Shown: piece after piece, positions 32,995 to 60,120 of the stretch
Layout: every line of letters begins with the position of its first letter
How positions within the stretch are numbered: position 1 is the stretch's first letter
Origin: Bacteroidota bacterium
GTDB taxonomy: Bacteria; Bacteroidota; Bacteroidia; Flavobacteriales; Flavobacteriaceae
Direction of reading: 5' to 3'
Length of the DNA stretch: 64,000 nucleotides
NCBI GenBank assembly: GCA_043738745.1
Contig: JAYUFL010000135.1
Span: forward strand, 796 to 64,795
Position numbers and translations under genes: made by a program
Notes under the pieces: generated by a model
Seen by the model: the letters and a program-made list of their open reading frames with translations, nothing else
What the model was told of the DNA's origin: nothing
Database searches by the model: none

Positions 32995-34155
32995 CTATCG
33001 TCTTCCGCCGCTACCTCCAGATCTTCCTCCACCGCCGCCAGAATAGCCGCCTCCTCCACCGCCATAACTAGGGCTTGGAGAGTAACTACGTGTTGGCTCA
33101 GAATAACTGCGTGTGGGTTGTGAATAAGTTCTTGTTGGCTCAGAATAACTACGTGCGGGTTGCGAATAAGTTCTTGTTGGCTCCGAATAAGTTCTTGTTG
33201 GTTCAGAATAAGTTCTAGGTGTGTTGGAATAGTTTGGAGTTACATCTCTAGACGGTGTCGATTCGCTTCTAGGATTAAAACTTCTAGGGTTATCACTATA
33301 ATTAGATATCGAAGTTCTAGGGCTACTTTCGCTTCTAGGATTAAAACTTCTAGGGTTAGAGTTATTATCTCGTGTTGAACCGAACAATCCGTTATCTCTT
33401 TGTCCTGCTACACCTCTCACATTGTTAGTGCTAGAACCTCTTCGACCAGAATTATTGTCATATACCGAGGATTCTCTACCAAAATTATTGTACGATGAAC
33501 CTCTGCGACCATGATTGTAACTATAAGAATTTCCATTATTATAACCATTTCCATAATATCCATTGTTACCATAATAATTATTATAACCATAAAAGTTGTT
33601 ATATCCATAGTTTGGACCATACCAATAGTTATAATATGGGCTATATCCTACATTCCAATAACTACTATACCAATAATTGTTATATCCCCAACCAAAACTA
33701 GACCCATACCAATTGCTGTAATAATATGGATTACTGTATCCCCAATTATTTCCATACCAATTGTTATAACCCCAATTGTTGTATCCTGAGTTTCCATAAT
33801 AGTTTACCGTAACATGGTCAGGATTACTACCCCAACTCGAGTTACTATTATACGATTGATTTGTTGTACCGTTTCCATAATTTGTGTTTGTAACAGAACT
33901 GTATTTGTCAACATCTGTAATTACTTCCGGTTCTTGGTTGTCGTCTCTAAGATTTTTGAAATAATTTTTGTATTGATTATTTTCAGTACCAACATACTGG
34001 GTCTCTGGTCGCTGTTTTTCAGAATTTCCGTATATTCCGTCTTTATCATAATAAGAACTATTTTGATAGGAGCCACAAGAAGAAATTGCAATTGTAAGAA
34101 ATCCAAATAAACTATAAATGGATGCTTTTTTTAAAGAATGATAATTAGTTTTCAT
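32995..34155 (-). CDS. Conserved lipoprotein with long low-complexity, disordered C-terminus
   Basis: Probable start MKTNYH (34155), lipobox ISSC, YDKDGIY motif, then Y/N/G/W-rich, R-rich, heptad-repeat and poly-Gly regions. Confidence 0.72.
   Translation of the reverse strand: MKTNYHSLKKASIYSLFGFLTIAISSCGSYQNSSYYDKDGIYGNSEKQRPETQYVGTENNQYKNYFKNLRDDNQEPEVITDVDKYSSVTNTNYGNGTTNQSYNSNSSWGSNPDHVTVNYYGNSGYNNWGYNNWYGNNWGYSNPYYYSNWYGSSFGWGYNNYWYSSYWNVGYSPYYNYWYGPNYGYNNFYGYNNYYGNNGYYGNGYNNGNSYSYNHGRRGSSYNNFGRESSVYDNNSGRRGSSTNNVRGVAGQRDNGLFGSTRDNNSNPRSFNPRSESSPRTSISNYSDNPRSFNPRSESTPSRDVTPNYSNTPRTYSEPTRTYSEPTRTYSQPARSYSEPTRTYSQPTRSYSEPTRSYSPSPSYGGGGGGYSGGGGGRSGGSGGRR
33082..33216 (-). repeat. In-frame 21-bp tandem repeat (YS[EQ]P[TA]R[TS] x6)
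   Basis: Protein TYSEPTRTYSEPTRTYSQPARSYSEPTRTYSQPTRSYSEPTRSYSPSPSY; DNA period 21. Confidence 0.9.
33262..33357 (-). repeat. Two perfect 30-bp direct repeats, 66 bp apart (NPRSFNPRSE)
   Basis: TTCGCTTCTAGGATTAAAACTTCTAGGGTT at 33262-33291 and 33328-33357. Confidence 0.9.
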
Positions 34156-34256
34156 ATCTATGGTATTTTTATTGTTGGACATTACAAAAATAGTTAGTTT
34201 TGCCAAACTATTTAGTTATTTTTAAGTTAAACAATTTTTGTGCCAAACTATATTTT

Positions 34257-44769: not shown

Positions 44770-44829
44770 TTAATAGTTTGTAGAGTTCAGTTTATAGATT
44801 GTGTAAAAATTCATTTGTTACAAAACAAA

Positions 44830-44856
44830 AAAACCTTGGCATGACACCAAGGTTTT
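44830..44856. terminator. Bidirectional terminator
   Basis: AAAACCTTGG-CATGACA-CCAAGGTTTT between convergent genes. Confidence 0.75.
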
Positions 44857-44878
44857 CATAAATTTAAACTTAAGTAAT

Positions 44879-45563
44879 CTATCCAGCAACTGTAACGGTT
44901 ACAATATCACTCCACATACCTACTTTTTCGTCGTTCATTAAATAAATGGCACGGTAGTTCCAAATGGCACTTTGTACTTGTGCTGGCATAGTAGAATTAT
45001 CTATAAAATCAGGATGAAAATCTTTGTCTAAGGTTACAAATCCTGCTCCGCTGTCTTTTTCGATAAGTATTCTTCCCAATTTTCCTTTTTTCCAAAGTAA
45101 ATTTACTTGTCCGCCTCGCATTACTGATTTTAAAACAGGTTTTGCATTGTCTAAATCGATTTTTTGCGAAGCCGAAATTTCTATTCCCAAGTTTTGACCT
45201 ATGGCAGTAGTATAACTTTGATGTGCTTTAATGCGGTTGACCATGGTTGTAAACCGAACCAAAATACCTGGTGGCACTACCCGTTGGGGTGATATCCAAC
45301 GTTGGGGCTTCGGGAGCTGTGTTACTGGTTACGTTGGATTCTCATTTTTTGAGAATGTTTTTGAACGTAGTCCAATTTTTTTTGTAGGTATCTACTTTTT
45401 TAAAATTTGTAACTGCCCAAGTATAAAAAACCGCATCGGTCTGAATACTTGTTACCTCGGCGGTAGAAATTGCAAATGCAACATTGTAGGCGTCAATTTT
45501 TGAAGCAAAATTTGCTAATTGAATGGCTAATTTTTCGTCTATTTGTTCTAAATAAGTTCCCAT
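44879..45563 (-). pseudogene. Disrupted hypothetical gene (about 227 aa if restored): in-frame TGA plus a +1 frameshift
   Basis: 73-aa ORF ends KK-TGA(45342-45344), the frame stays open as ESNVTSNTAPEAPTLDITPT, and removing one base near 45280-45290 joins it to VVPPGILVRFTTMVNRIK...VTVAG. Confidence 0.75.
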
Positions 45564-45714
45564 GATAGTATTGTTTAAATTAATATTACCAAATAAAATT
45601 CAATATTTATGCCGATTTTTAATATTAATCTTTATTTAAATCATAAAAAAATGTTATAAAATATATTATTTATGATATATTGTTAATAATCAATAATATA
45701 AAATTTTCTTTATC

Positions 45715-45923
45715 CAGTAAGAAATGTTTTTTGACCAGTAAGAAACTATTTTACATCAGTAAGAAATCATTTTTAAACAATACAAAACTATTTTATACCA
45801 GTAAGAAATCATTTTGAACAGTTGGAAATCATTTCTAACCCTCCTAAAATCATTTTTGACTAGTAGGAAATCATTTTATCCCAGTAAGAAATTTTTTAGA
45901 GCAAGGAAAAATTATTTCTGCAA
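45715..45923. repeat. Degenerate 21-bp tandem array, about 10 units, consensus CAGTAAGAAATCATTTTxxAC
   Basis: Units start at 45715, 45736, 45757, 45778, 45799, 45819, 45840, 45861, 45882, 45903. Confidence 0.85.
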
Positions 45924-45936
45924 CTGATAAAACAAA

Positions 45937-45966
45937 AAAAGCCGAAAAAATAATTTTTCGGCTTTT
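45937..45966 (-). terminator. Intrinsic terminator of the T9SS protease gene
   Basis: AAAAGCCGAAAAA-ATAA-TTTTTCGGCTTTT, 27 bp past the stop at 45993. Confidence 0.8.
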
Positions 45967-45992: not shown

Positions 45993-48900
45993 CTATTTTT
46001 TTATGAATTTAAAATCTTGTGAGTAACTCTCGGAAATTAATTTTACGATATACATTCCGTCTGAAAATTGTTGCAAATCGACTTGGCAATTTGGAATTTC
46101 GGAATCGGAAAGATTTTTGCTGAATAAATTTCGACCATTCAAATCATAGACATTCAATTGAATTGAATGATTGCCGAAAAGTGTTGTATCGATGTTCATC
46201 AACTCGAATGTTCCATTGTTTGGATTTGGAAAAAGAACAATATTGTTGATTAGTTCTGATTCTATTTTTTGTTCCAATCCAACTTTTGCCGTTTTAGAGA
46301 GAACACAAGGCTCTATTTTAGCAGAAAACACCGCGCCCGAATTGATATAGGTGTTTGGTTTTAAACTAATAAAATCTCCTGCTCGCATGGTAACCTTTTT
46401 TCCTGTCGCTACCAAATAGTTAGTGTTGGTTATAATTGAGTTTTGACGACGATACAAAACCGTTGTGTTAGGCTCTGGAACTGACAAGGTCAAGGTGCTT
46501 AAACCACAATTGTTGTTTGTGTTACCACACGATGGATCAGAGGCTGGTAATACGGTAACAGTTAAAGTTGCAGTTGTAGCGCATTGTCCTGTTGCTGCAG
46601 TAAATGTATAGGTTGTTGTTGCTGTATTGTTTGCTGTTGGGGACCAAGCACCTGTAATACCAATTGCATTTGTTGAAGTAGTTGGCAATGCAAATGTTGA
46701 GCCCAAACAAATAGGTGCAATTGAGTTGAACGTTGGAATAATACCTAAACTTACAACAGTAATAGTACATGAAATCGGAATAACACATAGACTTGTATTA
46801 AGTGGAAAAAAAGTAATTTGATGTATCCCTAATCCAGCAGTTGTTGAGTTAAAAGAATAAACACCGTTGTTATTTATAACGCCATCTCCTGAAAAAGTAC
46901 CAGATATAGGTTGAGATGTAGTAATAAAATCGCTTAAATTATTTAAATTAGAGTTTATACATACCGATTTTGGTAAATTAAAAATAACATCTGGTGATAA
47001 TCTTAAATCAACATTATCAAGATAGTAATAGTAATAACCTTGATCTGTATATAAACCATAATTAAAATTATAATGATCACAAATATTTTCATCTGGTTGT
47101 AAAGGAATATTTTTATATTGTACGTTTTTAAGACCGCCTAAATATAAATATTTTTCACCTCCTAAAGAATCCGTAGTAAACGTAAAACTAATTCTTTCCC
47201 AACCATTTGAAATAGTTGAAAAAGTTGGATTAGTAAAAAGCATACTTGAATTATTTAGAGGTAAGTCTACAAAACGGTTTGATTCAATTATTAATTTTTT
47301 GCTTAGATATGCTTGCAACTTTATAGCCGTCGAATTACTTCCCTCTGCCAAAGAAACATCAAAGCATAATTGATATTTTGTATTTGCTAGTAATGGTTGT
47401 TTTAGCTGTGTTATAATAGATTCATTTTGACCACCAGATACGACTGGTATAAAATTATTTACTTGTTTTGGTGCTCCAGCAATGCCAGCATATGCAGCGT
47501 ATCCGCGATTATCATTTTCAAAACCTGCATGATTACAAGGAATTTGAAAATTATAATTAGTATTAAAAACACTTAATGCATTAAAATAACCTGGTGTGGA
47601 ATTTTCGCAAGACGATCTCCAACCACATGCCTTTATAATTTGAGGGTAGTCAACGCATATTCCGCCACAAGGCAAGTTAGAATATTGTTCGAAATTACCA
47701 TTATTAACTAAATTGTCATTTATTGGTGTTGCACAACTAGAATTATCAAATACATAAACAAAAACATAGGTTAAATTTCCTTTTTGATTAGTTACAATAT
47801 TAATTGGAACATATCTCAGAATGTGAAGTCCGGGTACATTACTAACAAAAGAGATACTTGTTGTTAAATCTCCAGATGAGACAGATAAATTAGATGCGCT
47901 GAATGAAGTAGTAGTGGAAAGATCTTCTAAACAACTAAATCTGAGATTATTTAAATTTGGAGAATAATCAATATTAGAGTTGTTTGTGTAATCGTTGGCT
48001 AATATATTTGTTATATTTATGGTTTGCCCCATAGTACCAATAAATTGAAATGACTGATCTGCATTTAGTCCATCATTAATTCCGCCAACAATTGAACTAT
48101 TTAGAGGAATTGTATAATCAATGAAACTATGTTGTGCAACATTTCCAAAGGTTGTTTTTACGCTATATCCTATATCAGATAAAACATTTCTCTCTTCAGG
48201 GCGTAAAAATCTTTTTGTTGATATTGAGCCAATTGCATTACTCATTGCAAAATATAAATTATTATTTGCATAATTACAAGTTGGATATAACTGATCTTCA
48301 AAATGACTTAAACTACTACCGCTTTCAAAACATTGAGGTGTATATAATGGAATTGGTGTGTTGTTGTTTCCTGTATAAGTAATGGCTTTACCACAGATTG
48401 TTTTATCTACTGAAGAATTTAAATTTAAATGATTCAAGTTAGTGCAATCAGGGTATAAGACGTTTGTGTTTAGATGCGGATTAAATATATAATCGTACAT
48501 ATTGCAGGAATCACTTGCATTTGTAATTAAGTTAGTTCCATTAGAAGATAAAAATTTATCATAACGACTGTAATAATGATCCGCTATTCCTGGTTGATTG
48601 AAGTAAACCGATGAATTACCAGTTTCATTAATTAAACTATTAAAACCTAATAGATGCATTGCTTCGTGGAAAATTATACTGTAAAAATCAATAAGTCCAA
48701 CAGGAGAATTTATGCTTAAATCATTGTTCCAATTAAAACTTGTGTTAGTGTAATTTACAGATATAAATCCATGATGAAATCTATTATTTAAACCAGTACT
48801 CGGTAAAATAATATTGTTGTTTGTGTAAGAATCATTTCCACTATTTATTGTCTGCCAAAGCATAGTGTCCAGAATACCTCCCTTAGAATTATTATAAGGA

Positions 48901-57013: not shown

Positions 57014-57108
57014 GGAGCCAATCCTGCTATTCGTTACAATCTTTTTTAAAATTTGCTTGCTTCGCCGCAAACTTTAAAAAAGGATTTCCACTGCTATCAG
57101 GGCTAGGG
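57014..57108 (+). repeat. Flavobacterial dispersed structured repeat, copy 1 (Flavo-1 RNA-like)
   Basis: CCAATCCTGCTATTCGTTACAATCTTTT-[hairpin]-AAAAGGATTTCCACTGCTATCAGGGCTAGG; homologous to the reverse complement of 60041-60120. Confidence 0.6.
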
Positions 57109-59968: not shown

Positions 59969-60040
59969 TAGACGAGATAAATGTGTAATTTTTAATTTTT
60001 AAAATCCCAAGCCAACGAAAATAAGCGAAAAACTTTTTCG

Positions 60041-60120
60041 CCTAGCCCCGATTGTAATGGAAATCCTTTTCTTTTTTTTCTTAAAAAAAGAAAAGATTGG
60101 AATGAAAAGCGGGAATTGCC
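60041..60120 (-). repeat. Flavobacterial dispersed structured repeat, copy 2 (Flavo-1 RNA-like)
   Basis: Minus strand GGCAATTCCCGCTTTTCATTCCAATCTTTT-[hairpin]-AAAAGGATTTCCATTACAATCGGGGCTAGG. Confidence 0.6.

Follow-up and report, generated by a model that had tools for sequence, protein, structure and literature searches.

The window, a stretch of 64,000 nucleotides from a Bacteroidota bacterium, contains an array of ten 21-base repeats that is real and non-coding, and arrays of the same class precede most relatives of the neighbouring gene across Bacteroidota. Taken as a whole, the array is probably an undescribed gene-linked protein-binding DNA element. The window copy is a surviving, recognisable one whose distal units are eroding and whose local gene is inactivated by two lesions. 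As a pseudogene remnant it is of little interest by itself and serves as a pointer to the wider rule.

The array occupies positions 45715..45923 and is annotated on the minus strand, the strand of the neighbouring gene, as a non-coding tandem array on the basis of its periodicity, its stop codons in all frames and a core that is shared across loci. On the plus strand its units start at 45715, 45736, 45757, 45778, 45799, 45819, 45840, 45861, 45882 and 45902, giving spacings of 21, 21, 21, 21, 20, 21, 21, 21 and 20 bp. The original prediction of a ten-unit array with a period of 21 bp is confirmed by these positions and by the periodicity measures given below; the spacings include two 20-bp steps. 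The plus-strand core of the units is CAGTAAGAAATCATTTT, with a variable linker of 3-6 bp. Read on the gene strand, the unit is AAAATGATTTCTTACTGG plus a linker of 3-4 nt, and within it AAAAT-N-ATTT is the family-wide core and CTTACTGG the clade-specific part. Tandem Repeats Finder (TRF) reports a repeat at 45709-45892 with a period of 21, 8.8 copies and 65% matches, as well as super-periods of 42 and 62 bp, and a repeat search of the array finds 8 in-register copies. When the array is compared with itself, 0.59 of the bases agree at lag 21 and 0.61 at lag 42; 2000 shuffles reached no more than 0.44 at any lag from 5 to 69. Fidelity falls toward the right, as had been noted before: units 7-10 are the most degenerate, and the right-hand end is the gene-distal one. 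The units abut and have no unique spacers, their sole variable part being the 3-6-bp linker, which agrees with the earlier statement that the array is not a CRISPR. With 0-1 mismatches allowed, the CAGTAAGAAATCATTTT core has no other occurrence in the 2.6-Mb draft genome, and no Rfam family covers the window array or the other array loci. Elsewhere in the window, two Flavo-1 RNA motifs, at 57016-57108 on the minus strand and 60040-60120 on the plus strand, reach 72 and 79 bits and exceed Rfam's gathering score. Such RNAs, together with the names carried by relatives of the protein, mark the genome as a Flavobacterium-like metagenome-assembled one.

The array had been placed between the terminator of a protease gene and the AT-rich region 5' of the gene at 44879-45563, and this placement stands. 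On the minus strand, the module follows the order upstream-gene terminator, array, AT-rich leader, 227-aa gene and terminator; array, AT-rich leader with its promoter and gene together take up about 1.2 kb. The upstream gene, which ends at 45993, encodes a 1110-aa protein with a type IX secretion (Por_Secre_tail, T9SS) tail, and its strong intrinsic terminator (45937..45966, minus strand) forms the module's distal boundary. The array follows after about 15 nt and is shielded by this terminator (45966-45937) from upstream transcription.

Between the array and the start codon lies a 150-nt AT-rich leader or promoter region (45564..45714, minus strand) that can be aligned with the leaders of L020 and L023, two homologous loci. 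It is largely conserved in an intact paralogue of the gene and holds an AT-rich inverted repeat (45637-45650 / 45666-45679) as well as a TCGGCAT-N5-TTGAA motif about 50 nt before the ATG. A motif of the form TGGCA(C)-N5-TTG(A), 50-95 nt before the start codon, is found at 45610-45630 of the window and in the leaders of L020, L023, L028, L031 and L035. Its sigma-54-like scores are 8-10 of 11, with a chance expectation of 0.03 per 200 nt for scores of 9-10. We considered a sigma-54 promoter of the -24/-12 type, given scores of 9-10 of 11 in four related loci, and regard it as a doubtful candidate: the canonical GC at -12 is missing in all of them and the motif is missing in most loci. The motif could instead be a flavobacterial -33 element.

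The gene downstream of the leader (44879..45563, minus strand) is a pseudogene of a family of 227-aa orphan proteins with a helical hairpin and a fibronectin type III (FN3) domain. Its first lesion is a TGA at codon 74, where relatives read GGA; this glycine is invariant in an alignment of 17 sequences (A1) and is not invariant in a larger one of 98 (A2). The second is a 1-nt frameshift about 20 codons further on. Together they leave two fragments of 73 and 149 aa, and the window gene is dead. An intrinsic terminator with a 13-pair stem followed by a T run (44829..44857, minus strand) closes the module.

The intact paralogue lies on another contig of the same genome (G000:C32:5557-6240). It encodes 227 aa, is 72% identical over the C-terminal fragment and is preceded by a separate 21-bp array of about ten units. 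This array stops 139 nt short of the ATG, the same distance from the start codon as in the window, and the paralogue's leader is homologous to and alignable with that of the window. An XRE-HTH gene beside this paralogue was considered as a linked regulator and dismissed, as it is not conserved at other loci. Loci of the family were gathered from named genomes (22), relatives (two) and metagenomes (several). In 20 of the 23 closer loci, 21 is the best autocorrelation lag, and the three others are one frameshifted copy and two truncated Ignavibacteria homologues. Within 800 nt upstream of the gene, TRF finds arrays with periods of 21, 42, 63 or 84 and about 5-15 units at about 20 of the 23 loci (14.7 copies in the longest single row), including nearly all those of Flavobacterium and Chitinophagaceae; these counts come largely from related loci and are inflated by shared descent. 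Distant homologues with 35-45% identity are preceded by arrays with periods of 21 or 42 in 8-9 of 12 cases, the largest having 24.5 units with 96% matches, and arrays are missing at the other 3-4. A near-identical unit, AAAATGATTCTTGACTGGTGT, is present in 10.6 copies with 89% matches in a relative whose gene is intact. The original prediction had proposed a tandem-repeat search upstream of homologues as its check. A lack of arrays beside homologues would have refuted it; arrays of the same period in fact precede most homologues, and its suggestion that array and neighbouring gene are parts of one unit is supported.

The extent of this unit can be read from its borders. No other ORF conserved beside the family was found at the compared loci, and therefore array and gene form the unit. 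Flavobacterium restrictum LB1R34 has three copies of the module (L026, L027 and L029) that are 95-96% identical and sit at unlinked sites. Between L026 and L029, DNA homology of about 96% starts near the first array unit and stops about 90-130 nt past the stop codon, just beyond the terminator; the unit of inheritance therefore consists of array, leader, gene and terminator. In L027 the array has diverged, its best match is in inverted orientation, and a vestigial unit of the other array type is kept about 190 nt further upstream, which indicates that arrays are replaced or rebuilt faster than the gene diverges. F. restrictum paralogues with 97% identical proteins stand behind arrays that have diverged and that lie at differing distances from the gene; over all loci, between about 50 and about 350 nt separate the array from the start codon. 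In one and the same genome, arrays beside two family members share a core and arrays beside other gene families differ in their units; unit sequence thus tracks the adjacent gene and not the host. An apparent inversion of the array relative to the gene, in which arrays match plus to plus in blastn with their genes on opposite strands, was also looked at and discarded: the gene-oriented window unit aligns with L074, L023 and L032, and the plus/plus match arises because the core is palindromic.

The spacing of the units is far better kept than their sequence. About 95% of some 205 junctions between units show a step of exactly 21 bp, and uninterrupted runs of such steps reach 12-15, although units within one array are only 65-90% alike. 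Indels therefore appear to be selected against, and we read their scarcity relative to substitutions as selection on helical phase. Conservation of the period, a further check proposed with the original prediction, has thus held both between and within loci. Arrays of this kind might also be functionless by-products of slippage or unequal crossing-over at a duplication-prone site that hitch-hike with the gene. The super-periods of 42, 63 and 84 bp do reveal block duplication, unit number ranges from about 5 to 24 and some homologues lack arrays altogether. Such an origin is nevertheless very unlikely, given that the association extends down to 35% protein identity, over which unit sequence has turned over fully and the period has stayed the same; that indels are almost absent despite 10-35% substitution between units; that a core is conserved across loci; and that the array is identical in four metagenome samples, among which no variation in copy number was seen.

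Within arrays, a conserved block of about 16-17 nt is joined to a free linker of 3-5 nt. The palindromic core AAAAT-N-ATTT(T) is common to 19 Flavobacteriaceae and Chitinophagaceae loci, with 9-10 of 10 core positions matched in 16 of 20 loci; the information content of these figures is inflated by the rotation of every unit to whichever position fits the core best, and they come from related loci. The other 10 or so nucleotides of the unit are locus-specific and hold almost no information across loci. Units of distant homologues differ, and some have palindromic cores of another sequence (CAAT-N4-ATTG, TTCGC-AA-GCGAA and CGTTAA-GG-TTAACG). Over whole units, dyad symmetry exceeds chance, with a mean of 5.97 versus 5.27 of 8 pairs (Wilcoxon P = 4.5e-4). 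Taken one by one, 6 of 29 arrays reach significance and the window unit does not (P = 0.18), and we have therefore given up whole-unit symmetry as a universal rule and regard it as a tendency only.

The A/T-rich core raises the possibility that DNA shape alone matters, with phased A/T tracts making the DNA upstream of the promoter curved or easily wrapped, as UP elements or curved-DNA activators do, and no sequence-specific binder being involved. Each flavobacterial unit does have an A4-N-T4 block exactly every two turns, and under this model no constraint would fall on the variable 10 bp, whose drift is observed. However, the tracts recur once per 21 bp and not per 10.5 bp, the part of the conserved block that is not A/T is also kept within arrays, the distance to the promoter varies widely, and homologous arrays at L034 (a GC-rich 42-mer), L056 (CTGATTCTTCGCAAGCGAAAA), L066 and L058 are without any A/T tract. 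Shape as the sole function is on these grounds distinctly unlikely.

Since 21 is a multiple of three, any stop-free unit opens a frame through the whole array. The original prediction had met stops in the frames it read and had offered a decayed heptad-repeat ORF as one explanation. The stops are there, in all six frames across the window array, but the explanation fails: no strand and frame is consistently open across 18 homologous arrays, and L021, whose array is among the best preserved (92% matches), has 5-13 stops in every frame. An origin of the array as a decayed heptad-repeat coding sequence is scarcely credible in spite of the equivalence of 21 bp and seven codons and of another 21-bp repeat in the window that is coding. 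The latter, at 33091-33231, consists of 6 copies of TGTTGGCTCAGAATAAGTTCT with a period of 21/42 and lies inside an ORF of 403 aa on the minus strand (32995-34206), which makes it a coding heptad repeat and a phenomenon distinct from the array.

The array could also be transcribed into a repeat RNA with which the protein works. This RNA might inhibit the protein like an antitoxin, after the fashion of type III toxin-antitoxin systems, or serve as a scaffold on which the protein assembles unit by unit. Tandem repeats directly upstream of a small orphan gene do recall ToxIN, CptIN and TenpIN. The units are locus-specific, the family is patchy and multi-copy like accessory or defence genes, and similar arrays occur in integron-like cassettes beside defence-type genes. 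The layout and composition of the arrays argue otherwise. The strong terminator stands about 15 nt before the window array and no conserved promoter was found upstream of the arrays, nor is there any terminator-like site or hairpin between array and gene (45564-45714). At symmetric unit positions, G.T mismatches (94) and A.C mismatches (108) are balanced, so that the sense strand lacks the signature of G.U wobble pairing. The palindromic core reads identically on either strand, the unit of 21 nt is shorter than the 34-45 nt of known type III systems, and the protein matches no ToxN, AbiQ or PADLOC model. We consider a repeat RNA partner unlikely, and the array probably does not have an RNA role. 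The related array locus of Flavobacterium psychrophilum is absent from the strain mapped in the transcription start site atlas of that species (PMC9723704).

Pfam, NCBIfam, PHROG and PADLOC contain no model for the family, and the PDB contains no sequence match. An AlphaFold2 model built from the 98-sequence alignment (pLDDT 92) consists of a long helical hairpin (residues 9-73), an extended linker, two short helices and a C-terminal FN3-like sandwich. The two short helices carry the most conserved sequence of the family, R-F-x-x-x-V-N-R-I-K-A-H-x-x-Y-T-x-A-I-G-x-x-L-G-I-E. Foldseek matches the model to FN3 domains only, and the N-terminal 135 residues, modelled alone (pLDDT 90), match nothing in the PDB (best E = 6.9). 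Neither the family model nor the searches revealed a Rep, ParB, ribbon-helix-helix (RHH), winged-helix or other recognisable DNA-binding fold, and the median pI of the family is 7.8, which is not basic. The family profile matches 2287 representatives of 50%-identity clusters; among 401 Bacteroidota genomes searched with it, the family is in only 6, with 1-6 matches each. A relation between the N-terminal domain and the other array-adjacent helical ORFs of this genome was looked for and rejected, with nothing found by hmmsearch and a probability of 0.7% in hhalign.

The original prediction had offered, as one reading, an in-phase binding array, either iteron- or parS-like or a regulator scaffold. 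The in-phase binding array remains the best fit, with its strict spacing, its conserved block and free linker and its palindromic core, but the iteron or parS label does not survive the comparison with the gene family. An iteron origin or centromere of a small integrated replicon, with the gene as initiator or adaptor, would account for a row of direct repeats, two turns apart, that adjoins an AT-rich stretch and a gene. Against it, the protein has no winged-helix Rep, ParB or RHH fold, tblastn finds the family in none of 72,556 plasmids and 50,697 phages, and no partition or replication gene was found linked to it. Its neighbours are ordinary chromosomal and housekeeping genes, among which no mobility genes are conserved, and up to six copies reside in one chromosome. 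We regard a replicon origin as highly improbable.

A further alternative keeps the binding array and assigns it to a trans-acting host regulator, for example a LytTR-type response regulator, which would regulate the gene from this platform. The 21-bp geometry agrees with that of LytTR operators, the genome encodes 4 LytTR proteins, the neighbouring protein is without a DNA-binding fold, and the plus-strand unit of the window begins with CCAGTAAG, which resembles the AgrA box ACAGTTAAG. This CAGT-like part is, however, clade-specific and not family-wide. No regulator gene is linked to the module, nor is any of the 4 LytTR genes, and its 10-24 sites far exceed those of any known LytTR operator. 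Moreover, the units follow the adjacent gene family and not the host genome, and the core changes together with the protein across families. A host regulator as the occupant of the array is unlikely.

The reading we place first is that of a non-coding, helically phased protein-binding array, with one site per two turns of B-DNA, that is tied to this gene; we hold it to be somewhat short of an even chance. It is favoured by the two-turn spacing, the core with its free linker, the strand symmetry, the site upstream of the promoter and the co-inheritance with the gene. Binding as such, the identity of the bound protein and the effect on expression are points that we infer from these features. In outline, the array would be inherited with the downstream gene as one module of about 1.2 kb, and a dimeric or oligomerising protein would recognise the palindromic core AAAAT-N-ATTT(T) of each unit. 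With all sites on one face of the helix, neighbouring protomers could touch and form a cooperative filament or a wrapped complex of about 200 bp just upstream of the promoter, and this complex would set the expression of the gene. The variable distance of about 50-350 nt to the start codon is ill-suited to a classical operator at a fixed position and would be better matched by a complex that spreads or wraps.

The most economical candidate for the binder is the product of the gene itself, which would then be autoregulated, the alternative being a host regulator. We give self-binding about half of the weight of the phased-array reading. It is favoured because unit sequence follows the adjacent gene family rather than the host and because the core changes with the protein across families. 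It is disfavoured by the lack of a known DNA-binding fold, the neutral pI, the homologues that have no array and the diverged arrays of F. restrictum. Since proteins that are 97% identical stand behind diverged arrays in that species, it is unlikely that the protein reads the variable part of the unit; at most it would recognise the shared core.

A bolder form of this model may be entertained as a tentative possibility. Array and helical-hairpin/FN3 protein could constitute a new two-part nucleoprotein system, widespread in Bacteroidota, in which the protein polymerises on its own array, one dimer per two turns, by means of an undescribed DNA-binding fold, for which the invariant segment R-F-x6-R-I-K-A-H-x2-Y-T-x-A-I-G is the candidate. 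What forms, a filament or a wrapped particle, would do more than simply autoregulate, with sensing, silencing or defence as examples.

Arrays of this period are not confined to the family. In the genome to which the window belongs, 21 is by far the commonest tandem-repeat period, with 41 TRF rows, followed by 42 with 12 and 63 with 6. About a dozen separate non-coding 21-bp arrays are present in this genome, each with its own unit, at sites including C28:5322-5551, C137:57-287, C63:1615-1827, C229:166-306, C171:3349-3531, C67:472-655, C24:26860-27037 and C215:1667-1853. Several of them come after a terminator, either that of an all-helical orphan gene of 240-255 aa (MASTSETGHNKNVANF...) or that of a GmrSD-like gene. 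Those arrays stand just before an attC-like element and are therefore inside cassettes. The element is about 130 nt long, strongly self-paired (GCATCTGCTAAC...GTTAGCAGATATG) and present in 51 copies on 17 short contigs totalling 72 kb (C228, C56, C182, C191, C171, C137, C28, C229 and others), all outside the window; Rfam has no match to it. Copies on one contig share their orientation and are 600-2400 bp apart, with 1-2 co-oriented ORFs between them. A large chromosomal integron, or attC cassette array, has this layout, seen here in a Flavobacterium metagenome-assembled genome. The best match to an integron integrase (C29, 355 aa) falls below the TIGR02249 cut-off. A comparable arrangement is seen in F. 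psychrophilum CP059100 (L080, 3855-4044), where downstream of a homologue of the 240-255-aa helical gene come a terminator, about 9 array units of 21 bp and a stretch similar to the attC-like element; the insertion is absent at this position in F. psychrophilum strain OSU THC02-90. With 21 as the commonest period and similar arrays beside other orphan genes, the phenomenon may exceed one family.

The significance of the array lies in this association. A large protein family for which Pfam, NCBIfam, PHROGs and PADLOC hold no model carries a conserved cis-element in which the spacing of 21 bp is kept and only a short core of the sequence is kept with it, and the element provides a concrete handle for assigning a function to the family. 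Transcription factors and promoters of Bacteroidota are poorly charted, and the array may reveal a new DNA-binding fold or a new form of cooperative promoter control in this phylum.

Several known systems share part of this architecture. Iterons, which are known from the plasmids R6K, pSC101, P1, F and RK2, are direct repeats of about 17-22 bp with a spacing of about two turns; those of the lambda origin are dyad-symmetric and are bound by the O protein. The arrays described here are like iterons in these dimensions, in their several to many copies, in the adjoining AT-rich stretch and gene and in a sequence that is specific to each element. They differ from them in belonging to a chromosomal multi-copy module with neither a Rep-type protein nor a replicon, in having 10-24 units, which is more than at most origins, and in the variable distance between array and gene.

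Phased tandem operators are also similar in geometry. ARG boxes are 18-bp palindromes placed 21 bp centre to centre, and the sites of LytTR regulators such as AgrA, ComE and VirR are direct repeats of 9-12 bp with a period of 21-22 bp, including 9-bp repeats with spacers of 12-13 bp. The window array agrees with this LytTR-type geometry (repeats of 9-12 bp, period of 21-22 bp), an agreement in geometry only. Both kinds of operator resemble the arrays in their 21-bp centre-to-centre spacing, their placement on one face of the DNA, their AT-rich, partly palindromic cores and their position upstream of a promoter. In contrast, the known operators have 2-3 sites and a regulon-wide consensus, whereas the arrays have about 5-24 locus-specific sites and no linked regulator.

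Type III toxin-antitoxin systems (ToxIN, CptIN and TenpIN) consist of transcribed repeats of 34-45 nt, then a terminator, then a gene for an endoribonuclease of the ToxN fold. As in these systems, the array is found immediately upstream of one small orphan gene, its repeats are locus-specific and its distribution is patchy. Unlike them, it has a 21-bp unit with a strand-symmetric core, lacks a terminator before the gene and is paired with a protein made of a helical hairpin and an FN3 domain.

In plasmid centromeres such as parC-ParR, tubC-TubR and sopC-SopB, too, some ten short repeats adjoin the gene for their coating protein, and these centromeres double as autoregulatory operators. The present module differs in having no partner NTPase and no RHH or helix-turn-helix fold, and in not being on a plasmid. 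A full-text literature search found no description of gene-linked 21-bp arrays of this kind. The array in the window resembles iterons, ARG-box and LytTR operators and small plasmid centromeres in geometry and type III toxin-antitoxin loci in layout, but it lacks defining features of iterons, type III loci and CRISPR arrays that were tested. It belongs to a class of 21-bp phased arrays, linked to genes, that is conserved and apparently undescribed.
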